64,000 nt of DNA from Centruroides vittatus (lineage: Eukaryota), in assembly GCF_030686945.1 (NCBI RefSeq), contig NW_027122708.1:5610248-5674247 (forward strand). The letters run 5' to 3'. Below the pieces are notes generated by a model. The model was not told the DNA's origin, made no database searches, and saw only the letters and a list, made by a program, of their open reading frames with translations. The position numbers and the translations under genes are program-made. Below, piece after piece: positions 1 to 58,428 of the stretch (the first letter of the stretch is position 1; every line of letters begins with the position of its first letter).

Positions 1-3000
1 AGGAGTTTTATTTTAGTATTAAAACTTTATTATCAATTTTAATGAAGTCACGAGTTATTGGAATTTTTGAAAAAGTTGATAGAAAGATAATAATAAATAC
101 TAAAATATTTATAATATCGATTTATCATGAAAAATTATCGATAAATGCAATGATTATTTAAATTAAAATTTTATCCAAAGATATTATTTAATTTCTTCCA
201 AATACATATTTACAGAGGAAAGTTATTAAATAGAGAATAAGCCAAAGTTGGTCTTGATTTATAGCAGATTTGCTGAAGCGCGCATAAATTTAATTTATCA
301 CTAGCCATTAGATAACAAATGTTTTATTCTTGTAACTTTGGTAACGAATTTCATTAATTTTGTTACGGGCATTCAACTTTTCCTTATTTGTAAATATATG
401 GTATTATGAATTCGAAATGATTGAAAGTTATTCAAATGGATCTCAAGGTCAGGGGTTCACTAAAACCTAACATGAACTGAATACTTATACTACTAGGTAT
501 ATACCAAACGTGGAAAAAACCCTCATTTGATGCAAACTTAATCTTTTTAGCGATTGGTTTGCGCATGATTTTCCGATATTTCCTCATTAATCATTGTCGT
601 GATAACAACTGTTCATTTTTCTTCAGTCAGTACGTTTTCCCATAAGATAACATGTGATAATGATTCTGTCTCGAACCTTTAAAGATTTACATAAAGATGA
701 TCAAAATTCTAATAGAGTAAATAGATCGAGAAGATGTTTGGTTGATTATAATTATAAAATTTCTTAAGGAACCATCGTCTTTACAATTCATTAAAGATGC
801 AAAACAGAATGATTATGATTGACTGTATATTTTAATAATTAAAATTTTAAAATATCTTTGGATTGTAATAGGCCTATATGCCTTATTTTTCCTGATTTTG
901 CCCTCTGTAATTTGATTATAGAGGACTTTGAAAAAATTACAAACCATTTTAAGTATTCTTTTTATGAAAACTGATACTTATATTAATAAAATGGATTGGG
1001 AAATGATTATATACTGTATATGTGTTTCGAGTGTAAGCTTTGCACACAGACTAATTTCATTTGTTACTTGTCTTGGTATTCGTATTTAAAAACTAATCTG
1101 TCGTAAAGGTCTCATATACTTATACACTCATTGAGAAAAAAGTTACGTAGCCAAATTGTTCGATTGCTGCAAAACTCGGCATACAGCTATGTCTTAGACA
1201 GGTATGTAAATGATTACGGTTGTGGTCCGATTGCGTGCAAAGTAATGTCTTCAGAGTGCCTTAAAATCGTTACCCTATATCCTGTAAAAAGGTTCACAGG
1301 AGTTTACTGTGTGTCAGAATTTTCAGTGTACCTATTGTTTGGAGATCTTTGGACGACAGATTCGAAGATACATTGAAAATTGGCTTGGGAAACAATCTCG
1401 TTTGACAGTCGATCACCTCTAGGAATAATGCGAAGGATATTGACAGAATAGTGATACGTTCAGGAAATCCTGCACCCTCCTATTTCCCGAACGTTGCCTT
1501 CCAAAATTTTCTTAAATTAAAGTTCAGACATTGCTGCTAATAAACATAATGCTCGGCCACTCACGGTACGGAGAGATGTCTCCGTCACGTTGCTCCCTTG
1601 GCCTGCCCGGTCGTCCATTGAGTATTTGTGGGACTTGTAGATGGAATGCCAGTTTCGATTGTCTACGAGTATGAGGTAGGCTATCTAGAGCGACTGTTGC
1701 AGCATCTACCGGAAAATCTGCCACAGGACAGCATATGGTGCCTGAATGTCTTCATGCCCGACCGTATTGTTGTATAGGCCTATATCCAAGAAAAAGGAGG
1801 CTTTACAAGGTACTAAAGGTTTGTTTAAATTGTATAATTATTGCGTAGAAAATTGTAATCACTTATTACCATCGTCAACGCATTCGCACTTATAAAGTTT
1901 CATTCGATTTCAACGCTCCCTTCTTGGTGCGTAACTTTTTTGTCAATGAATCTTTTTATTTTGTTCATCATTACTTCATTCTAATAAGGTTTTGTGCCAA
2001 ATGACAATAAATTAACTTTAAATGTATATACAATATTCAAATTGGGAAACAAATAATTTTATTAATATTAATTCGTTTTTGATTTATAGTAAAAGATTTT
2101 TATTTACAGTAGGCCTATATAATTATTAAAAAGAGTGTAACTGTAGTTTAAAATTCGATATAATAAAATATAAATTCGTGCGTAGGAAAATGATTATTAT
2201 TAATAAATCAACTTAAAAAAATAAATCTTTATAATGGTTATTACAAAATTTTCATCTATTTTATATTTTATAACGTAATGACTAAGAAGTAAAATGATAC
2301 ATGAAATGTTTGAAGAAATGTAACGTTTAGCCCTGATTTTTATCATAATTTTTCATCTTATTTATTTAAAGTTTAACTTTATTAAGTCAATTTATTAGAA
2401 TGATTTATTGCTTTAATTAAAAAGCTAACGAAATTGATACTTATAAAAAGTAGTTAAAATAAAAATAAAAATTTAATGATTGTAAAAGTAATGAGAACAA
2501 TGTGCACTTACGTCTAAATTAATAGTTACGGACACAAACCAGAATGAAAATAGACTAATGAGTTCTTTCGCGTTTTAAACAAGATTTGATAATAATTATA
2601 CGGAAGGTGTAATTTCTCCAGCATTAACCAATTAATATTTTATAAAATCAGAAGGCGGCAAATGTGACATTCCACTCATTTATCTCGTCGAGTGTCATTT
2701 TTGTCGTCGTTCAATATTCAACTACATATTGATAAAGTATTGGTCGACAGAGAGAGAGGGTTAAAATAGATACCTCATAAATCTCTCTATCTTGTCATTT
2801 GACAATGTCCCAAGGGGGACGACCAAACGTCTCTTAAAATCCCGATCACGTTATTCTGGTCAGCACGTCATCCTTTTGCTTGGTTTAATCATTATCTTTT
2901 AATTATCATAAATTCAAGGATTGGTGCGTGTCTCTCAGTTTAATTTTGATTGGCTTTTACGAAAATGTATCTAAATTTAACCAAATTGCCATAAAATCAA

Positions 3001-4594
3001 AATGTTCGCGATTTTATTCTCTTTTATTCTTATTTTACTGTTAAAATATTTAATTGATATGTAAAAATTAAACATTGTGTGCCAATATCATCGAATTTTT
3101 TCAAATTCACAGAATTTTTCGAAGTCCATTGCTGAAACCTTGAACGGTTATCTTTGTCCTTCTGTAGATAATTACAGGTTTGGCAAGAAGGACGTTCGTA
3201 AAATTTCAAAGAATGAAAATTAAAAAGATATAAAGCCTACTAACGACTTGTAGCGTTAAAATATTTTATCAAAGAATAGACAAAGCACGTAATATGATTT
3301 GTTATAGTATTGATTATCTCATTGAAGATATTCTAAATTCCAATAGAATTTGTGTGTGCTTAAACTAACATTCATTATATTAAAAATATTTTCGATAAGT
3401 TTATTTGGCCTGAACATTAATCAATAGCTGTTTGAGATTGTTAATACATCCAAATCTTTATTTACTATAAAAATTGTGTTATATATTAATTTATTTTTGA
3501 AAAAAAAAATTAATAATCTACAAATAAATATATCCACTTGTCAACAAATGTATGTAAAAACTACAAAAATGAACGATTTAATTGTCAATTACCATAATTG
3601 TCCGTAGAAAAAAGTAACCTAAAATTATTTACTAAGTAGGCTATATAATTTTATCATGACTTCAAAATATAATGAACACTATTTTTCAAAATGCCGTTAT
3701 TATATCTAGATAAGAGATGGCAGCACTTTAGTAAAGGTCTCAATTTTATCACCGATCTCTTTTCTCCAACGAGAGATAAGAGATTTTCTTGATAATTATC
3801 AAATTTCTGGAATTTGAGCATGGCAGAAAGGAGAACACAAGAACCATTACAGTGTTTAAGCTGTTGCATCAATAGAGTAATTAGTGAAGGTAATATTTCA
3901 ATGATAAGACCGACTCCGCCCGATTTCTCTAAAAGAGACACGTGATGGTTAGTTATCCCGCATCCATCTAGAATACAAATTGGCGATTAACTTGCCAGTT
4001 CTAAAGATCTGTAGACTTTGTTAAACAAACAGTGCAACCGACCAATGAATTATGTAGAATGGCATGGATTATATTTATATTTAAACTGCCAAATGGAATT
4101 ATATACACTTATTTTTAAATATTTGCTTCAATTGGCATCGTGTAATAAAATTAAATATTTGTTTATATTACATATGCTAAGCTAAACGAAGTCATTATTC
4201 TTGGCTTTTACGCCAATGACGACAACTGCTTATTACTGTAGATTATCACTGGCTGTTTATCATTTTCTAGTGCGCGATACATGAAAGATATGGCCACGAG
4301 CTATGTCTAAAACATCCTCTTCTAGTTCTCACATTATCTACTACTAGGATGATAATTTGACACACTTTAAGGAGCCAAGACTTTCATTTATTTATGGCCC
4401 GATGGCTCATAAGTAGTAGACATACATTCTACTACATAAATCGTTTTTAAAGCATGCCGAAATTTATGGAATCTTTGGATATTTGCCCAATAATATAGTA
4501 GAATTCGGCAAAAAAATTTTTTTTTAAAATAGAATCATAAATCTTAAATAATTTTCTATAAACGTTTTATCCACACCTGACTCTTTTACAACAC

Positions 4595-4644
4595 TAGCAA
4601 TTATTGTAATAATAATAATATTATTATTATTACAATAATTGCTA
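4595..4644. repeat. Perfect 50-bp AT-rich palindrome.
   Basis: tagcaattattgtaataataataat|attattattattacaataattgcta: the left half is the exact reverse complement of the right half, verified base by base. Confidence 0.9.
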
Positions 4645-5424
4645 ATGTGGTAGATGTATTAGCGTCGATAACGAACAAAGTGGATATTTCTGGAGTTTTT
4701 CTAGAAATTGTGTTGACTACTGGAAAAATTAATTGCGATTTGCCACAAAATTAATTTAGCCAACTTTGTAAATCATATTAAGTGGATTTACAATTCACTC
4801 ATTTCTCATGCCAGTCAGAGATTTATGACACTTCATTAAGTTGTAAAGCACGTGGCAGTAGACTACGTAAGCAAGGGTGGAGCACATTATGGTATACAAT
4901 CGTTAGATACGAGTCTTGGATTACAAATGTAGAAGGATAATTGACTAGGAATTATAAAAAGTGAAATTAATCTTTACGAGCATTTTGAATGATTTTTGGG
5001 TAATATTTCATCTTTGTTAAAGTTATAATAAATCTCTTGATATAACTTTTAAGTTCATAAGTTTTTATTATACGAACGTAATGTAATCTTAAGAAAGTTT
5101 TATATATAAACCAAAATGATTGAGATAGAGATAAAGTACCAATTATTTTTAATTTGTTTATGTCCAAGTTCTTAAATTATCTTATTAACTTTAAACAAAC
5201 TACTTCCTAATTATGAAAGAAAACCTCGTAAGTAAGCATCGAATTGAATTTTAAAATATTTTCTATATTTCATAAGATTACATATATGATATATACGTAA
5301 TAGATAATACATTATTTACAGCAGGCTCGTTATTGGAAAAAAGGCACGAGCTATAGGAAGAGTTTCGAATAAGAGAACAATCCTGGCTTTGTCTTCCAGT
5401 CCTTCATCTCGACAGTGCGTTTTT

Positions 5425-5436
5425 TATAGGCCTATA
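5425..5436. repeat. Example instance of the dispersed palindromic motif TATAGGCCTATA.
   Basis: Exact TAGGCCTA cores start at 869, 1775, 2110, 5427, 10788, 11760, 21930, 29622 and 56175. Near variants are at 3640, 10757, 15493, 44820, 47432 and 53163. Confidence 0.6.
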
Positions 5437-5514
5437 TAAAAATACGTTCGTAAGTTGTGCAGTTCACTATCTGTAATTATGGCAAATTTCTCGATCAATC
5501 AATAAATGACACGC

Positions 5515-5837
5515 TCATATATCGTTCTTTAAAGTTTTGCTGTGGTTTTGGAATTTCTTGCACTTGCAAGATCGGACGACTCTTATCTTGTATGTCCTTC
5601 GATCACCCGAACGACAGATCAAATGAACTCGCTTATGACGGACTAAATCATTAACGCATCGCCATTCGGAGGAACGTGTCCGACTCCTCCTGCTGACCAG
5701 TTCTGTGTACCATGGAAGTTCCGCCACTGGAAGGCATATTCCGGCGCACACTACTTCGGTTACAGGCTTGATAGAGGTACAATATCCGTCCGATATGTAT
5801 TTCTTCGAGCGCAACTCCTTACAACCAAGCTGCACAT
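5515..5837 (-). CDS. sostdc1-like: Terminal coding exon of a sclerostin/SOSTDC1-like protein (DAN-family cystine-knot, secreted BMP/Wnt antagonist type).
   Basis: Minus-strand ORF reads VQLGCKELRSKKYISDGYCTSIKPVTEVVCAGICLP...SSEWRCVND...RTYKIRVVRSCKCKKFQNHS. It has the cystine-knot spacing C..C..CxGxC..C..C..CxC. From memory it aligns closely with vertebrate SOSTDC1/SOST (CRELRS.KYISDG.CTS, EWRCVND, RTYKI.VV..CKCK). The exon is preceded on the minus strand by tttatttttcag, and the 2 nt (at) after the AG complete a phase-1 split codon before the GTG-Val codon at 5835-5833. Stop TGA is at 5517-5515. Confidence 0.8.
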
Positions 5838-5914
5838 CTGAAAAATAAATAAAATTATTAAATTTTTTCTCTCAGAAATCTTGGTAAAACACCTGAAGAA
5901 CATAGAATCCTTAC

Positions 5915-5998
5915 AGGTGCTAGGCACGGTGGCCAGACGATCGGTGCCAGCGGCCACTGACCTATTTCTCAGCAGCAGCTGGGACCGACTCGACACAC
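5915..5998 (-). CDS. Candidate 84-nt internal exon of the SOSTDC1-like gene. It encodes ..VSSRSQLLLRNRSVAAGTDRLATVPST(Y).
   Basis: Minus-strand acceptor ...ctcgctctgcag|GT (AG at 6000-5999) and donor |gtaagg (5914-5909). The 77-nt intron 5838-5914 then joins in phase to the terminal exon (t + at = Tyr). The peptide has weak RN....G.DR resemblance to the region just N-terminal of the knot in SOSTDC1. No Met and no signal peptide are present, so a further 5' exon is still missing. Confidence 0.35.
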
Positions 5999-8900
5999 CT
6001 GCAGAGCGAGTGGCAGGCCAATGTCAGGTGAGAGAAAACATCGAGAGTCACGTCAATGTATCACACTTCCAGTCACGCGTGGGCGTCACTTTCCTCTCTG
6101 ACAATGCACCGTCCATCGAGATTTTCTCCTAATCCCAGTTAGGAGGAAAGATTATCTTCGCCATCGACGATCACTCAAAAAATAATTGATAGATTTTAAT
6201 ATAAGTAATTGCTTTTCATAGTAGAAATTTCCGAAGTAAAATAATAATCGAAAAAGACGTTTTAATAACATAACAAGATGCGAAAATTTAAGTGACCTTT
6301 GGCATTTATTAATGTAGCCGATGTGTCTTCTTTATAATGTCCTTGGCGCTGATTTGTTGTTGCTCTCGGAGATGAAAATGCCATCGTCCTGCCTGATGTT
6401 CGTGTAAATCCAAATGCTTAAAGACAAGTTAAACAAACACGACGTCGAGTATTTTCGTTAATGCATCTCTATTACAAGCATTTTCTTTTTAAAAATAGCT
6501 TATTTTATTGTCGCAGCTTAAACCAAACTAATCTATAATCAGACAATTTAAATAAACTTTTGTTTTTTTAAATAAACAAATGTATTTAAAAAAATTAATC
6601 AAATAACATAGGCTCATTTCTGAATTATCTTCATACTGTTACAAATTTCGGTATACAGTAGTAAGAATAAATCTTATAAATATTTAAATGACTTAAATAT
6701 AAATCTATATTCTATATTACTGTATTTAGGTTAATTATTATATTATGCGAGTGTTGATACTGGCTGTTATGACTGTAACAAGAATAGTTTATATAAACAA
6801 AACTCTAAGTTCTAACAACCAAATTTGAATGTAGATTATTATTGGAAAGATAATACATTTTTCTATATTAACAGTAAAAAGGTAATAATGCAAATATTGA
6901 ATTTAAATTAAATTAACTCGAATAAAAAAAGGTAAATTTTTTTGCGAATAAATAATACAACTGTAATTCTTTTTTAACAGTAAAGCTCTAAAAATATCAT
7001 TAGACCTATTGGATTTCTTGAAAAATTAAATTTAAAATTATAATTTTTATACAATTCTTTTTAAGCAATGAGAGTATATTGGGTACACGTCAAGGATAAA
7101 AAGGTTTTGTTTCCTCGATGTCTGGAGTGAAGTTTGGAAACTTCAACTCTGGCACATTGCCGAAGAATTCAGCCAAATGTCACCTTATGATTGGCTGCAA
7201 CCGAGCTGTCTCTTTCCTTCCGTCCAGAATGAATCGCAATTAAAAATATGTAATTATTACATCACAGGAAAACAAGTACATGTATCGATCTTCAAGTTTT
7301 TAAGGAATCAAACACATATGAGCGAATGGATTGCTCGCGGCTAAGTTATTATTTTATAGGTAATCAAAATTTTTCATCGCCTTAAATACATTAGACTAAG
7401 TCTTATTACAATGGGAAAATGTATAAAGATTATTTACGAGGGTCATCGTCGTATGTTTTCCTGACAAGATCGCAATTCATTTCAATAGTATTCTCTGACA
7501 TCCGAGGAAAACTCCATAAAACGGACAAGGAAAATACGTGACACGTTCGGAGATAAAATCCAATAAATGCCATTCCGACTGATTTATACGAAAGACATAA
7601 ATAACTATCTCATAAAAAGAGGAATTTGCTCTAACGTAGCAGACTTTATTTAACAATTAACTGATTCGGTGTGTAGAGAAAAAATAACAAAAAAATAAAA
7701 ACTTCCGTTGAAGCTGCTTTTGTTTGCCATCTCATTAGAAAGAGCGTTTTACTTCACAAAATCAGTCAAATGCGTTTTATTTAATAGAGTTTTAAGGCAT
7801 AGCAACGGATCGAGAAGCAGTCACGAGTTGGATGAGTATTAATCCCCACAGCTTTGATGGATGAGAGAGATAGAGGAAAGGCGAGGTAGATTAATGATGA
7901 AACGATAGCATCTATAACGCAGCACCTGCATTCTGCCAGATATACAATGAATGAAATAAACTGATGTTGTTCTCTTAATACAACAAGGTGCCTGACTCAT
8001 GAAGAGAATAATTTATGAATACTTCTATCAGATCCACGATCCCTTCATAAATAAAGTCATGTTTAAATGTAAGTCGATCGACATTGGTATGAGAATTTTA
8101 ATGAGTCATTTTAATTAGTATCACATATATGTTATGAAGAGTCTAAAACGTTCGAGACGTTATTTACCACATAGGCATGATGTTACGAACTTTATACTGT
8201 AGCCTTGCTTAATTAACGCGTTAACAAACGTAACTAAAATGATATTTCTCCCCTCTCTTATAAATGATGTATTCCAGCCAAATTTATTGCATTATATAAT
8301 AAAAAAAAATTAATTAAAATATACTATTGTAAATGCTTAATCACGTTATCTTAGATCTTATATAATCTATCCATTTTGTTAAAATTGTTATATTGGTAAA
8401 GCGTTTTAAAGCAATAATTTCGATGATATTCGAATGAATTTAAGTCTACTTGAGTTAGACCACGTGATCGATAATTGTTATTGAAAGCATTAAATTTTAA
8501 CAGCTTAAGGCAGGAAGGAAAGCAAAGCAAAAGACCGCATTCGTCATCATTATGCGTCACCAATCGGATTTTTAGTGCACCCATCGAACTTCTTTGAAAA
8601 TATTATCATGTTTAATAAGCTACTGGGTGGATGCATAAGATGGATGAGTACAGCCAACAGAAAACGGATGTTTCTGTATCGACATTCTTAAATCGTTTAA
8701 TAAATGAATATTTAATAATTTTTTGAGGGTTAAATAAACATGAGTGTTTATTAACAGTCGACGCAACTTGAGTAATGAAAATATTTCCTTACTGATATAA
8801 ATTAAACACTGGGCTAATTCTAATCGTTAACTTTAACTGAATTTTTCATTATTTATTATTTTATAAATTAGACGAAAAAAGTCTTTATTACAATTGATTA

Positions 8901-11900
8901 TTTTTAATCTAATACAAGTTTTCTGAAATTTTAATCAACCTTTTTCATCATTCAAACCGATTTTGAAGCAAGTTCTTAATGGTAATCCAATCAGGTTTTG
9001 TCCTTTCACATCTCGTCAACTTCGTAAAGATGAGGGCCTCTTTCTTAAAGCCGAAAATCTCCGAGAAAACTCGGAGATAATTTAGATCGGCACGATATTT
9101 TTGATATAAGCAATGGATACTAAGATCTATAATCAATGGGAAGATGTCTCCAAGAATAAAGTCGTAATTTTAAACGAGGCGCTTGTAAATTTTGAATTTT
9201 ACCTCCCCCCCGTGTTGATTGTTGCCGCGCCGCTTTCTCGACAATAGAAAAGGTAACCTGTTTCTGGACATGACGGAGGATAGTTTCTATTGTTCCCCGT
9301 CTCTCAATTATGCTGCAGTATGAAACACGTGCCTCCATCCATTGCTGGAGGTATACAACATTTACAACGTCCTTGAGAGGCTCACTCACTGATTGGGTCT
9401 GTTTTTTTCACGGGGGACAGTGCGTGACAGGGAAACACTAGAAAGAGCCTCTTATCTCGTATTGATTTTTTGAAGGAATAATTGTATCTATAGCTTATAC
9501 GTATGAGCGCTTTTGATAGCATATAATTTGGCACATAAAATCAATATTTATAGGAAGAAGCCCAACTCATTAGAAGCTAATATTAGCTTCATTATGTAAG
9601 GGAAAAAAAGTTATAAATGATTAGTTAAATATTTTGAGGGGTTCCTAATAAAATTAGCAACTCAACGAATCGTGAAGTTAAACTGAAATATTTCTGCCGT
9701 GACGGAAAAAGACACATCATAATTTCCTAAACGAAATAGCATTCAGGCAATATGCCCAATCTCGTTTATTGCTTAACACGGTTGCAAATGCGGTGTTAAT
9801 GTAAATTATACTGTTTTGAAAACAGTCAAACGAGTAGGCTAATATATCAGTATTATGTTTAGTAAATATAATTAAATATTAAATAGGAAAAATAATTGGA
9901 AAAAGTATCTCACCTTTCATGTTGTTAGTTGTTATATAGTAGTCATTCTCGAGAAAATATGCCGTCGAATTGGAAAAGTTGTGCATCAAGCGCAGATGAG
10001 TGGATCTGGACGGTTGTTTGAAGGCTTTGCTGAGCAGACAACCCAATTCGACGAGGAAGACCACTACAACGGACCATCTCAAACTAGACGAACCCATCAT
10101 CGTCTGTCTGGAGGCCAAATCTTCCGGCTAAACCTGTCTATTTATGTACCGAATGGAATAAGACATTTGGCAAACAATTCTCTCGCTCTCGTCCCCTCAC
10201 TCACTACACATCTACATCCGACGTCGAACCTACTTCCAACGGGCCAACCAATCGCAGTCCGCCTGTCATTCATATAGTGTTGTCGGGCAATCACGTGATC
10301 CGCGTTGTTTTATCGAGTCTCGAGCCTACAAATTTGACGTCATCCACATTACAAGTAACATATATTCTAATTATTTTATATATGTGAAAGCTTTTAAACG
10401 TGTTATTCTTCTATTAGCGCGCTGTCGTCATATATTATTTTTAAAAAATAAATAAGTAAACAATAAATATAAGTAACCTAATTAAGTAAATTTATTTTCC
10501 TTTTCACCAAAATCGAATAAAACTTCTACGAAATTTTGACCAGAATAAATGTTCTTTTTTAAATAGAATTTTAAAATAATTAACCTCAGTAAATAACAAA
10601 ATATAAATAAATAATTTATATAATAAAAATGTTTTAATTAAAACGTTTGTCAGTAAATAAAATGTCGCTCATATTATACGATACATTAAGCAAATAATAT
10701 CTTTATTGTATATAACTTACTATATATACATTATAATGTATTTATATTTTATATACTGTAGGCCTTTATATGTGGTCTTAAATACATTAGGCCTACTTAC
10801 TTTTCTGTCAGACTGTAGTATTTAAAAATATTACTTTTTTAAAAAATCAGTTTTAATATTTATTATGGTTATTTGTACGCCAGTTGCGCTAAAAAGAATT
10901 CCCCTAATACAAGATTTGAATCCAATCAGATAGTATTTGGTGGGTAATCCGGATCAGGGTGCATTCCTTTGCTCACCCACGATGGCCAACCAATTGCGAG
11001 TCGGATCCGGAATTAAACCTAAAATCTCATATTACTCGTTGCTGCTAGTGAAATAGTTTGTAATGCTAATGCCGTATTATAATAATTCTATTACAATTCG
11101 TTTATTTTATAAATTTTAATGATATAACTTATATCTGAATTCTACCCAATCTCTTCTGAAAAGAAAAGGCCATTTTAATCTTTTGTTGTAATTGTTAATC
11201 GTGAATAAAGTCCGGTTTTCTATTGGCTGTTTTCTCTTTTGTCCGTATAATTCCAGCAAAATATCAATCATGAGCGATTTGTTCCAAACTAAACTTTTGT
11301 GTGGAAGGTCTTCTAGCTTAATTAATCTTAACATCTTGCCAAATTTAAACTAGAAAAGCGAGTAACGCTAATTTACCGAGATACAATAGCATTACATGGC
11401 AAAGGGAAACTATTAATCAACGTAAGATACTAGGCAACGTCACCGTGCCAAGGCCTTCTACTCGAGATGATCTAAAATTCATGATATTGTGAAAGATTTC
11501 CATATTTTTAACCACAAAAATAACAGGAATTTTTCATTTTTCTCTCATTAACAGTCGCCAAACAATTAAATTTTTCAGTTAATTTAATACATTGCACCAT
11601 TATCCTTATCTGTTAATTAAGATTAATTGGGATGCTGATAGTTTTATGTGTCGAGCTTACATACATAAATAATCTAATCTTACTCATATTATATTATTAT
11701 TATTTAAATTTTCCGATAATAGCTCTTGTTTCGGCTCCTTTAAAATTTTGATAATGACGTAGGCCTAAATATATAAACATCTAACGCTAGTAATTTTATC
11801 TCTTAATTTTTTTTTGGTAGTGATGACTTTCGCTTCTAATTAAAAACACATTAGGATTGGTATAAAACCAAATTAGAAAAGAAAAAAAAGTTTAATTTTT

Positions 11901-12169
11901 GAAAATTTTATCGCTTTGATTATATACGAGGACTGTAAAATATAAATGAGTCGATAAAATTTGTTAATGATTTTACGTAGGCAACTCTTAAATATGATAA
12001 TGATTGTATGAGCGCGAGGATGAATTTTTCCTTATCATTTTAATGCTAATAAATTAAAACAGCGAGTTTATTTATAGTAACGATTACAAATTTATTAATA
12101 AATTGACGATTATAAATCAAATAATAGGCATTAGTCTGTAAAATAATTGTAAATTATTTCCTGGTTATC

Positions 12170-12470
12170 AGTTTTACATAAAATTCTTCCCGACTCTTTT
12201 TCTCTTCCAATTCTTCCGCCCTGTGTCCACTAAGAAGGCCTCTTTTACATACCCATCGTGGACTCGAGGGCCTTTTATTATGCACCCAGGCCAAAAATGG
12301 AGACAGCCGAGTAGTGAGGAGTGGGGCCCGACATATCCGGAGCTTATCTCCACTTATCTCCTGTAAAAAATTCCTGGGTGTTTCCAGCTCGCTCGGATTC
12401 GATTCCGGATCCCCAGAGTGGTAGGCTGGTGTCTTAACCACCTCTTGATTCAAAGATGTCAAGAAAGTGA
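12170..12470 (-). mobile_element. tRNA-derived SINE (family A).
   Basis: The minus-strand reading starts GAGGTGGTTAAGACACCAGCCTACCACTCTGGGGATCCGGAATCGAATCCGAGCGAGCTGG (tRNA-like, GGTTAAG and GAATCGAATCC boxes). A body follows containing ...AATAAAAGGCCCTCGAGTCCA...CTTAGTGGACACAGGG. The 102-aa ORF 12154-12462 lies entirely inside this element. Confidence 0.55.
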
Positions 12471-15400
12471 TTCGGACACATTAAAATACTTCTACCCAAT
12501 CTACAGAAATTTATATCTTCGAAATTCCATTTTTACGGCAAATAAAACGGGTTGAGTAATTTTGTACGTATGACTAAAGAATAATCGGGAAATTTAAATC
12601 AAATTTGAAATGATTCATAGCCGTTCTATCCCTGACCCGAAGGCCTAAATAAGTTGCAGAGGATCAACAAGTCAATAGCAAACAGCTTCTAGGTTAAACT
12701 TAAATATCAATTGGAACTAACGGGGGATCTTGTCATTTAATTCGTAGATAGTTTAACGAACTGGCTTATGCTCTGTTTATTACACAAATAATTATTCTTT
12801 AAGTTATTACTTAAAGCGAAATACGCTATTAATCGTAGAAAGATTTCCAATATTACGACACGAAATGATTTGTAACTTGTTCCATTTATCGCTGTTAGCT
12901 TAATTTTGAAATTTTTAACAAAGTAGAACAATAGAAGAATGTTTTATGCTGTAGAATAAATATGAAGATAGGTTAAGCGAGTAATCTTTGTATCGCAGAG
13001 GAAGTAGATTACTCACGTATACATGGATATGTATATGTGTCTATGTACTGTACACCTATGTATATGTATCACGTATGCACTCACGTATCCATGTATATGT
13101 AAATATCTGAAACGAGAAAAATAGTTAAACATGCCATAAATTTGTCACAGATATTTATTTGCACCGATGAACGTTTAATATTCAATGTTTGACTTGGGCA
13201 TAAACACTTTCTGAATCGTAAATTATTCGCTTTGTTGCTATGCAATTCAATCTCGGAAAAACTGGCCAACAGACAAATAAGATCAGAATGCAAAACAGAA
13301 ATTTATATTTAAACTTTGCAAATATAACTTATATATACATATATTTCTTTTCTTTTCTCGTAAATATGGTGCGAGCGCATCTCATAATAGAGTTTTGTTC
13401 TAGATAATAGAATGCTTAAGATGCTCATCACAAAAATTAGGAGTTATTCATTGAATTATTTGACAATTAATGCCCACAAAGAAAAATATACACTGTGTAT
13501 ATACATTTTTACAGTATGTCTATATCATTATACTGTTTTACTGTTACTTGATAAAACTAGATCGAAATCGAATATTTTTTTAAATAAAAAAGTATTATTA
13601 TATATATTAAAAATAAATATTAGATATAATATAAAAAATACAGTATATATTTAATCGATTAATTAAGTGCTTAAAATATTCTAATATTCTGGAATGAATC
13701 TTCGATCGTTATCAAACTAGTGAATTAAACATGTCAAGAATTTATATTTAAGATTATTTTCTTCTAAATATTATAAATTCTTGGGATTTTTTTATTATTA
13801 TTATAAATTGAATTCTTGTGTTATTACGTTAAGATTAAACGAATTGCGAATAATTTATAATGAAATTTTTGATCTAAAAAATATATTTTTGTAAAAGGTA
13901 TTGAGACAGAGATCATTGAGCTTAATGAAATAAATTATTCTACTTTGATACATCCCGATGGGATTTTACTTGAAAATAACGAGTTGCCATTAAATTTATT
14001 TGGAATGTTGAGGGAATATTTTTGTAGATTTGTTGAATTGTATGCAAAATATAACAACACACAAAATAATAATATCTCAATTGTTTGTTAATATAAAATC
14101 TGATATTTTCATCACTTTGGACTTTTGATAACCCAATTTATTCACTTCACTTATTCAAACGGTATTCAATAACAGATTATTAAAAGGAACAATGCACCAT
14201 AGAATCTAAATGTAGTCCTAAGCTATTATTTTATAGGAAAACTATCAAGAAATCAATAGCACATTACTTATTTATAAATATCAAATTATCAATTGAATCG
14301 ATGAAATTTATCGTTTTTACATTTTACTTTATTTTTAACTTAGCATTTTTAATAGGTTTGTTATTGAGAGAAAAAGATAGATCTTGTTATAAATTCCCTT
14401 GATCTATCTTAATTAAATTCTTTCACTGCCTTTATTCTTTGTCTAGAAAGGAAAACAGATTAGAAATGCACTATTATGTCAGCTCTTGCAATATCTAGTC
14501 TCCCATTTCTCTATAATTTAGTAGTAAATTAAAATTAAAAAGGAGGCAGTGTCTGTGGAAGTAGCCGAATAAGAAATAGACAGACAGAGATCATTGAGCT
14601 TAATGCAATAAATTATTCTACTTTGATACATCCTGATGAGATTTTACTTGAAAATAACGAGTTGCCATTAAATTTATTTGGAAATAAACTTTCTGGGTTT
14701 GAGCCTGTGGTAAAAATCGCATTCTCTTTGTTCATTTCTTTCATTGGGATTTATTCTATTGGATAATTACTCGTTTATCGTCTACCTATTTTTATTGCTG
14801 ACATAAACCGTGGAATTCTTTATCGTATGATTGATAGCATATGCATTAACTGTCAATTACTCAAACGGAATTACAGTTCTTTGCATACGTTTTTACTTTT
14901 GTCCCTTTGCAATGACAGATAATTGTCATTAAGGATTTACATTTAACAGAAGCCGAAAACGCTCAAATTTTTTTATCACCATTAAGGAATAATGTTACTA
15001 ATAGTTGGAACTGAAAAACAGTTGAAAATTTAATTTACGTTTGACGTCATTTTCTAATTTTACTTATCATTCGGCAACGAAGACGGGCGAAAAGAATCAG
15101 TAATAAAATTTTCGTTTATAATAAATACAGCGTGATGTCATAGGAAACGATTACCACTTTTTATGAATAGTTTTTTCGTTATTTTGCTGATCTAAAGGCA
15201 TTTATTTTGAAAAGGTTGAAAGTTGTTTCGCTTTCGATATCATCTAGTAATGCTCCACTGAAGTTAATCAATATAAAAAGCAATTTTCTCTTAAATTACA
15301 AAATAAATAAACATATATGTACAGCGTACTTGCAAGTTCGACGTAATTAAAATACGAGTTTTTTAATGGTTTCTACACTAAATTTGATTAAAACGTTGAA

Positions 15401-34722: not shown

Positions 34723-34767
34723 AATTGACTTAAAAATTTTTTTTTAATATATTACTTGTTTAATTTA

Positions 34768-35095
34768 AAATATATGCTCTTCACCTCAAATTAGTACTGT
34801 AGTGTCTTACTCCTGTACATTATACTTTCCTGCTAGCAATAGCCTGTGCCGGTTATCTAACTGTTTTCCGGGAGAATTTTTGAATTGAAATAACGTGACT
34901 TTCGGTTTGTATCGGAATTTTATGTATAGATATATAGTTAATCGAGGCTATTGCCGATAAGGTTTCCATATATGATCTCGGATTTCATATATCTAACTCA
35001 GTTCTTGAGATTAAGGAAAGACAGACAAACAGACGGATGACTGGGAATTTATAGGTCTACAATTTTTTTCAAATTACAACCCAAAAATCGAACAC
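34768..35095 (+). mobile_element. Family-C interspersed element, copy 1 (plus orientation).
   Basis: ...cctgctagcaatagcctgtgccggttatctaactg...atagttaatcgaggc...aatttataggtctacaatttttttcaaattacaaccc is shared with 61.65-61.79 kb and 62.04-62.17 kb. Confidence 0.65.
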
Positions 35096-45900: not shown

Positions 45901-46789
45901 AGTACGTAGAAAAGGCTGTCTAAAGTGTTGCTGGAACCATTCTGCCTGAAAGAACGGCTTTAGTTTATAAGAAATATCCAAATTAATTCTCCAAAAACGT
46001 TTGAAGAGAGCAGAGAAAATGCTTCATTTACAAAATAATTTACATTTAATATAGGCTTAATTGTAGGAAATCAAAAGGCATGGGAAAAGTGAGGAATAAA
46101 TAAAGTAGAAATTCAATGATAATGTAATATTGCTGTAGATAAATAACCTTTTAACTGCAAATATTTCGGAAAATATGCAATTATAAACTTTGGTAAAGAA
46201 TAAAAGTACAAACATCTTGAACGAATTTCGAATCATAATTTGAACAAATCCAATTTGTTCTTGTTTTTGCAAGAATATTTTACCTTCTTCTCGAACAACG
46301 TAACTAATTTATCGCAATATCAACTTTTACACAATACATTATGCAATACAATATTCATATTTAGAGTCGAGGATGCAACTCAAAATATATATTTTCATTG
46401 TTTAATGCTAACTGCGATGTTAAACATAGCTTTTCTTTTCTTTTCCTTATCATTGTTTGCCATTATATTCAAGATAATGTTAATTACAATGTTAAAAGCA
46501 TTACAAAAAGTTTTTAACAATTTAATTAACATTAAAATAATGACTTATTTTTAATTTTTAATTTGCTTTTTGCATTTATTGCTATTACATAGACCAAGAA
46601 ATATTACTTTGACTTTATGAAAACGGCCAGGAAATAGTTCGTTATTCAACATCAATCAATTAGCATAGAGCAGGAAAATCTACGGTAACATACGATTTTG
46701 TTTATATTTTTACCGAATAAATAATTATCTCGATTTCAGTTTTACTCTCCATGCTGTTACTTAAATAACACGGTAAAGTATTGGAATCG

Positions 46790-47100
46790 TGTCAAATTTG
46801 ATTCTCCGGGTTTTATGCAAACCTCCACGTTTTGAGACCCCCTGAACCCAAAAATGGAGTAAAATTCCGCGGATGTGTGTGTGTGTGTGTTTTTTTTTCA
46901 ATATCTCACAGTTAAGAAACAAAATTTGGCATAGTAATTTGTATATAAGGGACATTAATACTCCTAATTTTGGAGTACGGAACTCGAGGGGATGGAAACA
47001 GAGTGGAGTCGAACTTAATGAAAATTTTACTTGTTATTGGCATTTAGAATATTTTTAAAACTCGAGACGAGTTTTGAGGGTAGAGACTACCCTCAAAATT
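46790..47100. repeat. Family-D repeat copy. It contains (GT)8-T9 and two adjacent AGA-loop hairpins.
   Basis: It shares ...aatgaaaattttacttgttattggcatttag with 52250-52285 and the ttttgagacc block with 33.7 kb. The hairpins aaaactcg-aga-cgagtttt and ttttgagggtag-aga-ctaccctcaaaa lie at 47056-47098. Confidence 0.45.
46875..46899. repeat. (GT)8 followed by a T9 homopolymer.
   Basis: gtgtgtgtgtgtgtgttttttttt sits inside the family-D repeat. Confidence 0.9.
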
Positions 47101-48786: not shown

Positions 48787-49024
48787 TTGTTTGTTTGTTT
48801 AGTTAAGTTATGGCAACGCAACACTTGGACGATCTGCCTAGAGTAAATGCCTTCCGACAGGTCTTTTTAAGGTTAACTGGCCCCTATTCAGGCGTTACAG
48901 ACGCGAAGAAAACCCGGAAAACGCCACGTGGCCTGAAAACTCCAGACTGTCCTGGCGAGGCGCGAACCCATGACGGAACTCCCAGTGTTTAGGGAACGGA
49001 ACCGCTTGGCCACAGGTGGGCCGT
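48787..49024 (-). mobile_element. tRNA-derived SINE (family B) flanked by perfect 12-bp target-site duplications.
   Basis: The minus-strand reading begins with a tRNA-like head GGCCCACCTGTGGCCAAGCGGTT...GGGTTCGCGCC (A- and B-box-like). It ends in a (CAAA)n tail, seen as ttgtttgtttgttt on the plus strand. The direct repeat aaacattaaagt occurs at 48775-48786 and again at 49025-49036, immediately flanking the element. Confidence 0.8.
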
Positions 49025-49140
49025 AAACATTAAAGTGCATTGTCATCAGACTTATGTCCTAAAAGTTTTGGCCTTCTATCTTAATTAGCAGTAGTTGAAA
49101 TTTGAGTTGCAAGAATTGAGAACACGATATAAAGCGAATT

Positions 49141-49141
49141 A

Positions 49142-49169
<28 letters not shown>
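49141..49169. repeat. (AAT)9-10 microsatellite.
   Basis: aataataataataataataataataataa, read directly from the sequence. Confidence 0.95.
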
Positions 49170-49172
<3 letters not shown>

Positions 49173-52089: not shown

Positions 52090-52300
52090 TATCTGAGAAC
52101 TCCCTTGGGATACCTCAGAAAATTTTGATATTTGGCAGAAATAATTCTATATATGGCATTAATGCTATTACGTTTAGAAGGTTATAAATCAAGGGGAGGG
52201 GAGATAGGAGTAGTAGGAGGCATATCGTTAGTAATGTCAGATATAATGAAAATTTTACTCGTTATTGTCATTTACAGTTTTTTTTTAAAAAAACACCCCT
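52090..52300. repeat. Family-D repeat copy.
   Basis: gatataatgaaaattttactcgttattgtcatttacag matches 47018-47050 (gaacttaatgaaaattttacttgttattggcatttag). Confidence 0.4.
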
Positions 52301-53524
52301 TTCCAAAATAAGGCTTTTGCCTGTTATAATAATTATATATATATATATATAATATATAGAAAAATAAAAAAGCCATGCCAGGAAAGTCGTGCAAGAGCCC
52401 TTAATCTTTTAAATTAATAATTATAGTAATAAAAAAAAATAAAGTTTCAACTTATTAAAACATCATAGTGGATAATGGAACACTTTTTTCCATTATTTAA
52501 TTTAAAAATAATGGAATCTGATAATAATATTCAAAATGTAGGGATGAAATCGATTTCAAATTATCTCTGGGAGTAGTATGGTAATTTTAAGCTACGATTT
52601 CAAAATACCTCCTCAAAGAACTTATCATTTGTACCGGTACGTTCCATCAGAATAAAACATGGAGCGAATACATGTAAAATTCCGATCAATCAGCCCGCTT
52701 TTTCAGCCAGATTCTGATTGGAACTTGAGATTATGCCATATTGAGGACAATTATTGTCTCATCCATATTGGATAATGTCACTTTGTTTCATAATGTCTGC
52801 TCCAGTGTTGTAGAATACAAGGCCGTCGAGAGGGGAAGCGGGGATTTTTCTCCGGACTCTGAAAAAACTTAGGGGTCCATAGTGGCTCTTACCCCGTAAA
52901 TTAATATTATTTTTGATTAAAAAATATAATTGTTTAAGACTGATTTTTATTAATAAAGGAACTTTCTACATATTCGTTTAATTTGTTCAAAAAAGATATA
53001 ATAAAAAGGACCCGCTTTATCCCGTGGCCTGGTAGAGCATTAAACCCTGGTAAGATGATCCACCTCGAAACCTGGGACACTGAGAGATTAAGTTTTATTA
53101 TGGCAATAATCCTTAACAGATGGATTTACGTATACAATACATATGTAAATGACAATAAGTAGGGCCTAATTGGAGTGTGCCATGTAATACAATTAAAATT
53201 TTTGTGACTTTTTTATTTTTCAAGAGTTGAGGCTAGCTTTCAATATTGTGTTTCATTCAATACAGTTTTATTCAATAAAACGTACCACGAGTTGTAAGTA
53301 TAAAAGAAAAAAAAATTATCATTTTAGCTAAATCGGGAAGAACAACGCTCAGGATTTATTTGAAGACCGGGGTTTAATCAACGAAATTTGTATCTACTGA
53401 AGGCTTCGATTTATTATTTACAGCGATTAAACTCTCGGATTTCACGTTTCTTTATTTAACAAATTCTAAAATTTTAATAGTAGACTATAAATTTTTCTTA
53501 TTTTTAAATCTAAAACACGCTTTG

Positions 53525-55444
53525 ATGCTTAAAATTTGTTTTCTTTCAGGCGATATTACAGAGGAAGAGGATGTTACTAATCAAACTCTGACGTCTATGA
53601 TGACGTTCGACGTCATCAATCGTAGCGTATGGATTGTGGACGTAGAGTGGCAAACATCCAAAGATAATTCGACGTGGTGGACTACCTGGAACGAAAACAA
53701 TGATACCATTTATCTAAGCGTCACCAACTGTACCAATCAAAGCGAATCTTGTAATGGTACCAACATAGTGCCCGAGAGTCCTCCTTTCAACTTATGGCAG
53801 ACCATAGTTATTGCTGTTCTGATAGGAATATGCTCCCTCCTAACCATAGCGGGTAATATATTGGTTCTTTTGGCGTTTGTAGTGGAACGAACAATACGTC
53901 AACCCAGCAACTATTTCATTGCTTCTTTAGCCCTCTCCGATCTTTTTATTGGAATCATCTCCATGCCGTTTTACGCCGTATACGTATTAGTCGGAAGGTG
54001 GGATCTAGGTCCTATTACCTGCGACTTGTGGTTAGCAATCGATCATACCGTATGTCTGGTTTCCATCTACACTGTATTATTAATCACTATCGATAGATAT
54101 TGTTCGGTCAAGATCGCTACTAAGTATAGAGCCTGGAGAACCAATACCAAAGTGTGGTGGATGGTAATCACTACTTGGATTGTTCCGTTTTTAGTCTTTT
54201 TCATTACAGTTATGGGTTGGGAACATTTTATTGGTTATCGTGATTTAGCTCCCGGTGAATGTGCGGTGCAATTTCTTAAAGATCCCATCTTTAATACTTC
54301 TTTAATATTTGGATACTTTTATCTCACTCTCATTGTACTCTTCGTCCTTTACGCGGGAATATACAAAACGGCCAGCGACATGCAAAAGAGATCCGAAGCC
54401 AAACAGAAAAAAGTGCAATCTTTGGTCTCCATGAATAAAGAAAAATCAGAGGAGAAATCCGTTTTGACAACATCAAAATCGTTCGGCAAAGAAAAAAGAA
54501 AACTTGAATCAAACAATGTAACAAATTCGAATCAAAGAAACACAGATTCGACAGAAGGGCAAAATACAGAAAAAAAATTCGAGACGTCATTTACTGAAGA
54601 AAAGAAAGAAAATTCCGATCATTCGAGCAGCCCCGTTTTTGATTCTGACGAAGAAAATGCTGCCCCTCAAGCAAATAAAAAAGAAAAGCGAAAATCCGCA
54701 GGTAGATCGATAGAAAACTTAAAATCAATTCCTAAAATACAACCCATTCCTCCCCCTCCTCCCCTGCCTCCTCCTCAACCACTCTGTCAATCTTTAAGCA
54801 GATCGTCAAGAAATAACGAAGAGAGCAAAATAAAATTACTACGTGCAGAAATGGACGAGAGAAAATTTAAAGATAACGAAAGACCTGGTAATCTGAACGT
54901 GAGTTACGTAGATCAAGAATGCCCTTCGACGTACACACAACTGCCAACTCTCTTACATTTCGAAGGAGGAGAAGTAAAAGATATAAATGCATTACGTAAC
55001 TCGGGGGAAAGCATTAAAGCTCGAGACGAAATGCAACCCATTGTGGACCCCGAACGTTCGGCATTCTTAACGATTTCAAAAGAATTATCATCTTGTTCCA
55101 AAAAAGTATCTTCTCTTCGACAGAAATTTAAAAAAGGAAGAAGCAAACTAAAAGGAGAAAAAAGACAAAAGTCTAAATCAGAAAACAGAGCCAGAAAAGC
55201 TTTGAGAACAATATCATTTATTCTGGGAGCATTCGTGTTATGCTGGACTCCCTATCACATTTTAGCCGTTGTAGAAGGTTTCTGTTCTGTTTCGTCCGGC
55301 TGTGTCAACCATCATTTCTTTTATTTTACTTATTTTCTTTGTTACGCCAACAGCCCTATTAACCCATTCTGTTACGCATTGGCCAATCTACAGTTTAAGA
55401 AGACTTTTTATCGTATTTTAAGAGGCGATTTTCACAGAAAATAA
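53525..55444 (+). CDS. Class-A GPCR of muscarinic-acetylcholine / biogenic-amine type. At least nt 53550-55444 are coding.
   Basis: 640-aa continuous ORF. Helix motifs recalled from mAChR sequences: TM2 [24 protein letters not shown]3 [12 protein letters not shown]...IDRYCSV (Asp3.32 and DRY present), a ~240-aa Lys/Ser/Pro-rich third intracellular loop, TM6 [16 protein letters not shown]7 [20 protein letters not shown] (compare M2 NPACYALCNATFKKTF). N-glycosylation sites sit in the N-terminus. The first in-frame ATG is at 53525, but a strong acceptor tttgttttctttcag ends at 53549, so the true 5' end is probably spliced. Stop TAA is at 55442-55444. Confidence 0.9.
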
Positions 55445-55625
55445 AACCAATTAAGCGAATTAACATTTACCTACCGATAACAATTAGCTAAGAAACACGG
55501 AAAACTTTCTAGTGTTGCAATCTTTGAGATTTTAGCTGTAACGTCATCGCTTACGTAGTCATTTCTCCATTCTAAACTGTGATTGAAGAGTCAGATATAT
55601 ATATAAATATATATAAGTTAAGTAG

Positions 55626-55631
55626 AATAAA
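55626..55631 (+). promoter_or_regulatory. AATAAA polyadenylation signal candidate for the GPCR transcript.
   Basis: This is the first AATAAA, about 185 nt downstream of the GPCR stop, in an AT-rich 3' flank. Confidence 0.3.
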
Positions 55632-58428
55632 AGTTATAATTATTGTTTTATTGATGGTTAATTGACGCTTACATTAAAAAAAAAGATGCTTATAATTTAT
55701 CTCTCTAAGAAATTTCGTTCTGATTTTAATTTAATAAATTTAATTTTTTTAAAGGCTAACAATTGCTTGTTTGAATTTGATTATACTCATATTATGAAAA
55801 AATTCAAGTTTTAATTTGGGTTAATTACATACACTTTCCTATTTTAATCATACTTTTCATCAAATTATTCTTAAAAATAATGTAACAAATTTTTAAAATA
55901 TAGCTTCTCAAAAAATGTAAATTTAGAATTGTTGCTGAAAAATAATACATATTGAAATATCAATATAATTATAATTTTTATATTCCATTTTTCCAACAAA
56001 ATGTTTTTATATCCTAAAATGTGATTCAAAATTTTTTTCATTAAATTAATTAACGATAATAGCCTAATGTATAAATTTACGCATTTATTGTACCCTACAA
56101 AATGTATATTAAGCCTGATATACAGGAGGATCGTAATTAAAGCACCCATATTCAACGCCGTAATAAATTCTAAATAGGCCTATACAGTATATTTAGCAGT
56201 CCAAATGTAACCAAATCTGGTATATGGTAGCATTAATTACCATCAGCCAGTACAGTAATAAATTCGGGAAGACACAACAATAGCATTTCGAATAAACTTT
56301 CCGGTTACATTATTCATAACAGATGCAGCAGTTTAGATTTCACAATTATGCATATAAATTATTTCATTTAGAAAATTATTTCTATATTCCTTCTAATAAC
56401 TCAATGCCGTGACGTCTATTTTAAGCATTGATTTTTGTTGAGTAATGACCTTGATATTTTGAAATGTTTACTTTTACCATAAAAGATTTCTCAAATAAGT
56501 TACTTATAAAGTAAGCATATAATAAACCTAGACATTCCGAGCATCTTGTATAATTTTATATTTGCAATGCATTCCATACGCGAAAATATTCAAACTATTC
56601 AATATATGTGCTGATTGAAATTTCTCGTCAGGCCAGAGAATTTCAATAAAATAGTCCACATAATGTTTTATATATTCATTAACATATAACTTATTGACAA
56701 GACTGTCTTGTTTATAAAATCACGCTGCCGTCAACGGCTGCACACCTTAGAGGTATGAAGGAGTACATGTCAGGAGTTGCAATTTGGCACAGAGTATTTG
56801 GTGCCAAAATCATGCGCACATAAAAGTCAGACTTGTAGGTAGTCAAGGAACCAAGAACCGAGTCAAAATAAAATACAAAATGGCTACACACTTTCTACAA
56901 AAAGGCACTAGTGCGAGATTTGCGCATGCGTTGCTGGTTGGGAAGTTTGAAATGTGAATTTTGACAAACGAATCTTTGAAAAAAACCCATTTACCTGTCT
57001 CATGTTATTCCCGGCATATCTCTGGTCGCGACCTGCTGACCTTGACGGTTGACCCGAGATATCTCGTTTCAGCATCGGAACGTTTTTGAAACTAGATGGC
57101 GCTAGTCGTTATAAATTTTATATTATAAAACTAACTTCCAAAATATAATTTTTTCTTTTTACATTTATTAATATATACATTTTGTTTGTGCAAAATAATA
57201 AAATAATTTCGGACGATACAATAGCCACTGTTATTTTTTTTCAAAAACGGGAAATTTTCATTAGGCATAGACAGAAATTCACCCGAGGCGACACGCAACG
57301 GAGAGAAATTTCGACATTGGATAGGCTGATTTCACCGAAAATGCATCTTGGACGACCTCGTGGCCGGCGAAGTTTGAACGATCGCGCTCAAAACTAGCGA
57401 TACCAAAGAAGATTGGAGAATGAGAACGAGACCTGCCATGACATAGCTTGTCCCAAATACGGCACTCACGTTTTACTTGTTTTAAATATGGTCTATATAT
57501 TTTATTTGTAAATATGTCAATGATTTTCTTGTCCGAAATGATCACATATCACTAATTTTTTTAAGCCCTCGGCATGCTAATCCATTCCTTATACAGTATA
57601 TATTGACATGACTTTGTTGTTTATTTGTGAAATTTCATTAGGAAGTGGAGAGTGAATGTGCATCACTGTTATTGCTTGAAAACAATATTTTGTAAACAGC
57701 TATATGTCCCATGAATTAAAATTTAAAAACAGGCGTTTTTGGCAACCCTGTAAATGCAACAAAGACCAGCTCTGCTGTTTACTTTTTCGCAGGACAACTT
57801 CGAAATTCTCTAATTGACGTAATTTTATAAGAATCGTAATTTTACGTAATAATTTGAATAAAATCCTTCGTCCATATTAGCTAGTTGCAGGCTTTTCAAA
57901 TGAGAAAACTGAATATCACTTAGTGCATATGACGTGGTCAATATGGGTATTCTCAAATATATAAAGTATCCTTATTCATTTAAAATTATTTTACAAAATT
58001 ATTGTCGAATGGATTATTTTCCAAAATAATTATAGCACCGAACAGTTTTTCGCACAAGTCCAAGAGATAGACTATATAAAATGAAATCTTATTGGAACTT
58101 ACGTTATTTTTCTACGTTTTATCAAATGACAGAAGTTAAGACACCATAATTTAATTACTGTTTAATAAATATATAAAATTAACAGTTTTATAAATAAAAA
58201 AAATAAATAAACATAAGCTGAAATTTTTTAGTCTGATACTTATCAATGTAAATAAAAGAATCAGAGAATGTAACTTATCTTATTTTCTATTAAAATATAC
58301 AAAAATCCAAAAAATAATTATGCAATTTATAAAATTAATAAAAACAAAATGTCTCCTTAATAGCCTCAATGATTCGAGTACATTTGACGTGCGTCACAAC
58401 TAATACGACAGGGTTTGCAACTCGTCGG

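Follow-up and report, generated by a model that had tools for sequence, protein, structure and literature searches.

A clustered TA-GGCC-TA palindrome in a Centruroides vittatus locus probably marks sites of transposon excision

Introduction

Why does one short, GC-containing palindrome recur in AT-rich scorpion DNA in surroundings that share nothing else? The question is raised by 64,000 nucleotides of Centruroides vittatus (NCBI RefSeq assembly GCF_030686945.1, contig NW_027122708.1, positions 5,610,248 to 5,674,247 of the forward strand), in the following referred to as the window. A first-pass annotation of the window drew attention to the dispersed palindrome TAGGCCTA (TA-GGCC-TA) and offered three candidate explanations: a protein-binding site such as an insulator, a core-promoter-like element, or a hotspot left by a sequence-specific process. 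Here the copies are interpreted as footprints left by the excision of a cut-and-paste transposon with TA as its integration site, with GG(C)...(G)CC ends and with a behaviour like that of Tc1/mariner/pogo elements. The probability of this interpretation is estimated at roughly 0.6.

Results

Enrichment and positions of the palindrome

The window contains nine exact copies of TAGGCCTA and no others, at the positions given in the first-pass annotation. They are listed together with two decayed copies recognized by comparison with C. sculpturatus.

869-876: TAGGCCTA, present or absent as a unit; C. sculpturatus has a single TA (6-bp indel, GGCCTA/TAGGCC)
1775-1782: TAGGCCTA, within what is left of the C-terminal coding part of a Tc1-like transposase; common to C. 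sculpturatus
2110-2117: TAGGCCTA, directly preceded by TACAG, the words overlapping as TACAGTAGGCCTA; common to C. sculpturatus
5427-5434: TAGGCCTA inside TATAGGCCTATA, 84 nt 3' of where the minus-strand sclerostin-domain gene has its stop codon; common to C. sculpturatus
10788-10795: TAGGCCTA, 0.7 kb upstream of the start of the sclerostin-domain gene; common to C. sculpturatus
11760-11767: TAGGCCTA, common to C. sculpturatus
15493-15500: decayed copy reading TAGGCCTG; the C. sculpturatus counterpart is an exact TAGGCCTA
15646-15653: decayed copy reading TAGTCCTA; the C. sculpturatus counterpart is an exact TAGGCCTA
21930-21937: TAGGCCTA inside TATAGGCCTATA, adjoining a TACTGTA/TACAGTA cluster at 21905-21925
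29622-29629: TAGGCCTA, context TTAGGCCTAA
56175-56182: TAGGCCTA, followed by TACAGTA at 56183; 0.7 kb 3' of a muscarinic receptor open reading frame (ORF)

The strong enrichment claimed earlier, with less than one copy expected, is borne out. Dinucleotide shuffling yields a mean of 0.36 and a maximum of 3 copies (100 shuffles, none reaching nine), and Markov models of order 2 and order 3 predict 0.43 and 0.55 copies, respectively (order-3 p ~8e-9). Once microsatellites are set aside, TAGGCCTA ranks first among the 8-mers of the window by over-representation. If up to one mismatch is allowed, 33 matches are found where 13 are expected, and the one-mismatch class by itself is therefore enriched about 2-fold. 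The inner hexamer AGGCCT occurs 17 times (4.6 expected) and GGCC 74 times in total. The half-site TAGGCC is present 28 times; 18 of these belong to the nine palindromes, and outside the palindrome the half-site is at expectation (10.7). The 12-mer TATAGGCCTATA, previously taken for a single instance at 5425-5436, starts at 1773, 5425 and 21928.

Sequence variants of the motif exist as had been described. The start at 15493 was correct, whereas several others were off by a few bases and are placed as follows.

3637 (start): TAGGCTA variant
10759 (start): TAGGCCTT look-alike, 29 nt upstream of the 10788 copy
44816-44824: TAGGGCCTA, possible 5-nt variant footprint (GG + GCC)
47429 (start): TAAGCCTA variant
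53160-53168: TAGGGCCTA, second possible 5-nt variant footprint

The two copies of TAGGGCCTA compare with 0.14 expected.

The sites share no extended homology, in accordance with the first description. Repeats detected by BLAST within the window overlap none of the nine sites, and local alignment of the +/-80 nt flanks gives a mean score of 25.1, compared to 23.5 for random TA-centred controls. Beyond the core, just a weak TAT flank extends the similarity, and there is no common terminal inverted repeat (TIR) sequence. The three bases preceding GGCC are ATA in five copies, GTA in two and TTA in two. The nine exact copies are accordingly not the edges of a repeat family; the look-alikes TAGGTCTA/TAGACCTA at 35052, 35500 and 62130, on the other hand, do share one. 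Scans of the window for Rfam families and tRNAs gave no matches, and a literature search with TAGGCCTA as a word returned primers and unrelated sequences only. An origin as a Hi-C junction or as an adaptor artefact was discounted by argument, since TAGGCCTA is not the product of any common restriction fill-in junction and most copies are present in an independent assembly.

Six of the nine exact sites are located within the first 12 kb of the window. With the two decayed sites counted, about nine are found in the first 16 kb and three in the remaining 48 kb, and TAGGCCTA has no copy in two other C. sculpturatus loci (L003 and L005, 53 kb together; P ~0.02 under equal enrichment). The strong clustering supports a regional process.

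A 22-kb locus of Limulus polyphemus (L001) carries TAGGCCTA at 2180-2189 and 2448-2457, 268 bp apart, with 0.11 copies expected. The number is too small for interpretation and the pair is unexplained.

Comparison with Centruroides sculpturatus

The orthologous segment of C. sculpturatus (scaffold KZ494450.1, hereafter L004) lies in reverse orientation and was aligned to positions 1-19992 of the window. The identity is 96.5% over aligned columns and 93-94% if gaps are counted. By this measure, the window comes from a close relative of the reference bark scorpion or is a divergent haplotype of it. Within these 20 kb, eight TAGGCCTA sites present in one or both sequences can be compared. Five are intact in both, two have one substitution in the window and one is a 6-bp indel. 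For a neutral 8-mer at 96.5% identity (0.75 each), six of the eight would be expected to be intact. The observed five are close to this number. There is no sign of constraint, though the power is low, and the copies decay at a roughly neutral rate. The first-pass annotation had proposed conservation in related species as a check; between the two Centruroides sequences, it is no better than neutral.

The indel concerns site 869. The window reads gattgtaaTAGGCCTAtatgcc where C. sculpturatus has gattgtaa------TAtatgcc, and the flanks are otherwise identical (for the shorter core, gtaaTAGGCCTAtatg versus gtaa------TAtatg). Since the 6-bp indel is clean, the motif was gained or lost as a unit, TA <-> TA-GGCC-TA. 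The alignment contains three 6-bp indels, and the chance for one of them to coincide in register with a copy of the motif is ~0.003. An empty site, as a footprint should have, is hence seen at one of the eight comparable sites. If the copy is an excision scar, the change would be a gain in the window lineage.

For the copy at 5427, the homologous 3' untranslated region (3'UTR) was inspected in transcripts of another scorpion. Neighbouring blocks are kept and the motif is absent, in a sequence too diverged to call an empty TA.

Footprint anatomy and target context

Footprints of Tc1/mariner transposons consist of the first or last 2-4 transposon nucleotides between TA dinucleotides, and the canonical footprints of Sleeping Beauty (SB) are 5'-TACAGTA-3' and 5'-TACTGTA-3' (PMC6943129). 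All nine copies of TAGGCCTA show this anatomy, as TA-GGCC-TA. Reading outwards, their flanks have T, A and T at frequencies of 0.61, 0.56 and 0.61, compared to 0.37, 0.39 and 0.37 around all TA dinucleotides (T at +1, p = 0.03, which is weak with n = 9). Tc1/mariner elements prefer a palindromic AT-repeat as target (PMC7913693), and the flanks of TAGGCCTA fit this preference (A-Y-A-TA-T-R-T). In another scorpion genome, Tc1-IS630-Pogo elements are the main DNA transposons (PMC11126328).

The SB footprint word itself is enriched in Centruroides. TACWGTA occurs 37 times in the window against 7.6 expected, i.e. ~5-fold (for example at 1012, 2105, 13510, 21905-21925, 45893-45904 and 56183), and 16 times each in L003 and L005 against 5.9 and 5.6 expected (~2.8-fold). 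In a spider locus and in the Limulus locus it is at expectation. Several copies or look-alikes of TAGGCCTA abut TACWGTA (2105/2110, 10754/10759, 21905-21930 and 56175/56183). Of the five 5-bp indels in the 20-kb alignment, three fall on TACAGTA, and one of these is clean.

3643-3648: empty TA in the window, TACAGTA in C. sculpturatus; GGCTATA-----TAATTTT versus GGCTATATACAGTAATTTT, clean 5-bp indel

Among all words of the forms TA-N3-TA and TA-N4-TA in 117 kb of Centruroides DNA, TACWGTA and TAGGCCTA are the top words apart from microsatellites, followed by TAGGCTA/TAGCCTA (16 versus 6.6 expected). If the context is restricted to ATA[core]TAT, CAG/CTG leads the 3-nt cores, and GGCC leads those 4-nt cores that are composed of G and C only.

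Three further observations concern these words. The subclass GTACWGTAC is present ten times with 0.16 expected (13046, 15711, 21914, 21919, 26203, 30403, 42635, 45893, 45898 and 48661). The flanks of TACWGTA favour C at +1 and G at -1 (0.33 versus 0.13), an unexplained misfit with the AT-palindrome target context. The TA-N4-TA word TACAAGTA/TACTTGTA is found 15 times in L003 and L005 with 2.9 expected; it may represent one more class of footprint or belong to a repeat.

A Tc1-like remnant in the cluster region

Site 1775 is embedded in the remains of a transposon.

1100-1960, plus strand: Tc1-like transposon, decayed and internally deleted; it retains a transposase C-terminus and TIR-like inverted arms containing AAAAAAGTTACG

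This remnant shows that TA-targeting elements of the Tc1 type have lived in the cluster region. Its translation reads ...FMPDRIVV, a stop, AYIQEKGGFTRY and a second stop, with site 1775 supplying the codons TAG GCC and a spacing of MP-x11-KGG. The spacing in Tc1 and SB is presumably MP/YP-x9-KG. On this assumed spacing, site 1775 would have added two codons to a dead transposase ORF. A search of PDB sequences for homologues bearing on the spacing gave chance matches only, and a search of 1.8 billion proteins gave one short match; no paralogous copy of the remnant was found in the sampled loci. It is also the one Tc1-like remnant to set beside the parallel CAG class of footprints; its C. sculpturatus copy has 11 extra 5' bases and appears to start with TAGTGCG after TA.

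Search for a parent element

Pairs of TAGG...CCTA with inverted-repeat ends yielded nothing but a foldback element that is unrelated and, in L004, a perfect assembly palindrome. When all TAGGC/GCCTA half-sites were listed, no shared TIR emerged. A candidate parent end at 60785 (TAGGCCTGGCGTTGC...) is internal to a repeat, as the homology runs past it. Enrichment of AGTTACG was considered as a sign of a TIR family and discarded, the occurrences being heterogeneous and not a single family.

Discussion

Proposed mechanism

A transposon as the cause, the sequence of its ends, its local hopping and the direction of the indel at 869 are what we infer from these data. Integration would duplicate the TA target. 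On excision, the transposase would cleave the non-transferred strands at a distance of a few bases into the element, and the donor site would be rejoined as TA, terminal transposon bases and TA. With 3-nt GGC overhangs, the self-complementary terminal GC could anneal and fill-in would give TAG-GC-CTA; with 4-nt GGCC overhangs, simple ligation would give TAGGCCTA, as would blunt joining of 2 + 2 bases. GGCC is its own reverse complement and both transposon ends hence give one and the same scar, which explains why the exact palindrome dominates. Such ends would also yield TAGGCTA/TAGCCTA, through a 3-nt overlap mismatched at its centre, and TAGGGCCTA, through 2 + 3 bases. The scars would afterwards be neutral and erode through point substitution. 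Local hopping is a known property of some Tc1/mariner elements, and its repetition could account for the cluster around the sclerostin-domain gene.

Several points weigh against this mechanism. In ~120 kb of Centruroides sequence no element of the structure TA-GG(C)...(G)CC-TA was found, and the ends of Tc1/mariner/pogo elements usually begin with CAG or NNAGG, not with GGC. The 20-kb alignment contains no polymorphic full-length insertion. Footprints would consequently outnumber resident elements, which requires long-lasting, excision-prone activity; such an excess of scars is possible if excision rates far exceed substitution rates over long periods. The indel at 869 could be a TA...TA microhomology deletion in C. 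sculpturatus. Of the other two TACAGTA indels, the first requires an adjacent substitution and the register of the second is ambiguous. A homotypic array of binding sites near a developmental gene would be in keeping with the regional clustering as well. The sample is small, with nine sites and one informative indel. Finally, clean footprints are a minority of excisions in rice (PMC4423477).

Alternative explanations

The copies might instead be palindromic sites for a dimeric protein (an architectural factor, an insulator protein or a DRE/DREF-like core-promoter factor), forming a homotypic cluster within the regulatory surroundings of the sclerostin-domain gene. A perfect palindrome of 8-12 bp that resembles TATCGATA-type elements, an exact core that outweighs its variants and the position around a developmental gene, with two copies 0.7-1.7 kb upstream of the ATG and one in or near the 3'UTR, are compatible with such a function, and the two copies in the 22-kb Limulus locus would be too. 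Nevertheless, this explanation is unlikely. Conservation between the two Centruroides sequences does not exceed the neutral level (5/8), site 869 was gained or lost as a clean TA-GGCC-TA unit, and one copy is located within a dead transposase ORF. The 3'UTR copy is absent from the transcript of the other scorpion despite conserved neighbouring UTR blocks, the 4-kb intron of the gene has no copy, nor do the 53 kb of the two other loci, and the literature search produced nothing beyond primers and unrelated sequences. On the same evidence, and with the low power that it has, the insulator and core-promoter interpretations of the first-pass annotation are both unsupported. [quoted passage not shown]

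Remains of very old, short TA-flanked MITEs, or of elements whose interior was lost by ordinary deletion while target-site duplication (TSD) and end bases survived, would give the same end product of TA, terminal bases and TA. The window is rich in MITEs and TIR elements, and one-mismatch variants are enriched, as in an ageing family. Random deletions, however, would not stop repeatedly at identical 2 + 2 bases. No copy keeps additional TIR sequence, the flanks are unrelated, and the event at 869 took place within ~3.5% divergence and left no intermediate. This origin is about as unlikely as a binding site. Of similarly low probability is another sequence-specific micro-insertion of GGCCTA at TA, for example by repair of a site-specific nuclease break or by templated insertion during end joining. 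A unit indel proves only that 6 bp come and go together, and no parent transposon was identified in the ~120 kb. We know of no process that adds a constant GGCC plus a TA duplication; moreover, the parallel TACWGTA class corresponds exactly to a published transposon footprint and the flanks fit a transposon target preference. Chance or a compositional artefact of an AT-rich genome, such as a general excess of GGCC in TA context, is highly improbable. GGCC (74) and AGGCCT (17 versus 4.6) are somewhat over-represented themselves and the enrichment is not replicated in the two other loci, but none of the 100 shuffles exceeds three copies, the order-3 Markov model gives p ~8e-9, half-sites outside the palindrome are at expectation and the 6-bp indel between the orthologues matches the motif's register exactly.

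Implications of the excision-footprint interpretation

If TAGGCCTA is an excision scar, short dispersed palindromes that emerge from k-mer scans of animal genomes rich in transposable elements (TEs) can be transposon scars and not regulatory words, which calls for caution in motif discovery. The data also hint that Centruroides has enough footprints to influence k-mer statistics. TA-X-TA words together with unit indels between sister species would then measure past cut-and-paste activity, vanished families included. In Centruroides, scars appear commoner than recognizable elements and would point to long-lasting, excision-prone activity of the Tc1 type. A more specific and tentative proposal, somewhat less probable than its opposite, is that an undescribed transposon of the cut-and-paste type, targeting TA and ending in palindromic GGCC, is or recently was present in Centruroides genomes, hopping locally and leaving a uniform 6-bp scar. 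If true, Centruroides scars (TACWGTA genome-wide, TAGGCCTA regionally) would be among the most over-represented short words of the genome, a readable fossil record far outnumbering the surviving elements. Should the motif be a binding site instead, a BMP/Wnt-antagonist-like gene would have in its vicinity a new palindromic element restricted to the lineage.

Genes and other elements of the window

The following further features were identified.

10100-9915 and 5838-5518, minus strand: sclerostin-domain (DAN/cystine-knot) gene with two exons; 169 of 169 amino acids (aa) as in C. sculpturatus XP_023230822.1
34762-35788: foldback-type element with ~320-bp arms (79% identical); related pieces at 61653-61803 and 62117-62164
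36729-37769, plus strand: intact ORF of 346 aa, coiled-coil, weak Pfam match to a CENP-F leucine zipper
53522-55444, plus strand: intronless ORF of 640 aa for a B-type (gar-2-like) muscarinic acetylcholine receptor
59033-59640: tandem repeat with long ORFs in several frames on both strands; low-complexity translation of the RERENEHRE type

The minus-strand region 5518-5871 carries the sclerostin/DAN domain and is 100% identical to XP_023230822.1. At the DNA level, the exons of this gene are 98.4% identical to C. sculpturatus, compared to 96.5% overall. The best matches of the muscarinic receptor ORF are 51-67% identical and come from chelicerates (Limulus, a C. vittatus paralogue and ticks); the annotated protein sets of Centruroides seem to lack this gene. 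Homologues of the 346-aa ORF are three Centruroides proteins only, and it is possibly ORF1 of a lineage-specific retroelement.

In the foldback-type element, TAGGTCTA/TAGACCTA imitate variants of the motif with one mismatch, and the tandem repeat is the source of the enriched word CTCTTCACGTTC and similar words. A palindrome resembling the cAMP response element (CRE), TGACGTCA, occurs six times with 0.49 expected (30833-30877, 31647-31691 and four other sites). Two of its copies are located in the 45-nt TIRs of an 860-bp element and the enrichment is therefore at least partly TE-borne. Just beyond the window start, L004 contains a perfect inverted duplication of ~2 kb (21851-24017, 20/20 matches at each tested offset), perhaps an artefact of the assembly, perhaps a palindrome of very recent origin.

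Comparison with known systems

Transposons of the PIF/Harbinger group (Tourist, mPing) have ends beginning with GGCC and a TSD of TTA/TAA. The terminal GGCC is shared with TAGGCCTA, but the TTA/TAA duplication is not: TTA precedes GGCC in two of the nine copies. According to one study cited in PMC4423477, excision of mPing is mostly precise.

Another likeness is to a regulatory word, as the DNA replication-related element (DRE) has the same form of an 8-bp perfect palindrome TA-NNNN-TA and is likewise dispersed without flanking homology. DRE (TATCGATA) is bound by DREF and BEAF-32 in Drosophila promoters and insulators and is promoter-proximal, genome-wide and conserved. In contrast, TAGGCCTA shows no excess conservation, is not genome-wide in the sample and behaves as a unit indel.

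Minos, a member of the Tc1 family, reportedly leaves a 6-bp footprint of four terminal nucleotides plus TA, which is taken here as a lead only. The net gain would be 6 bp as in TAGGCCTA, but in two words, CGAG and CTCG, instead of a single palindromic tetranucleotide.

The TAC(A/T)GTA footprint of Sleeping Beauty and other Tc1-like elements differs in that TAGGCCTA retains GGCC (4 nt, self-complementary) and not CAG/CTG (3 nt), gains 6 bp and not 5, lacks a visible element with matching ends and is regional rather than genome-wide, the last in a small sample. The anatomy is nevertheless the same, with a duplicated TA around the terminal 2-4 bases after repair by non-homologous end joining (PMC6943129). 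The AT-palindrome target context is shared as well, and in Centruroides the TAC(A/T)GTA word is 3-5 times enriched and polymorphic as a 5-bp unit.

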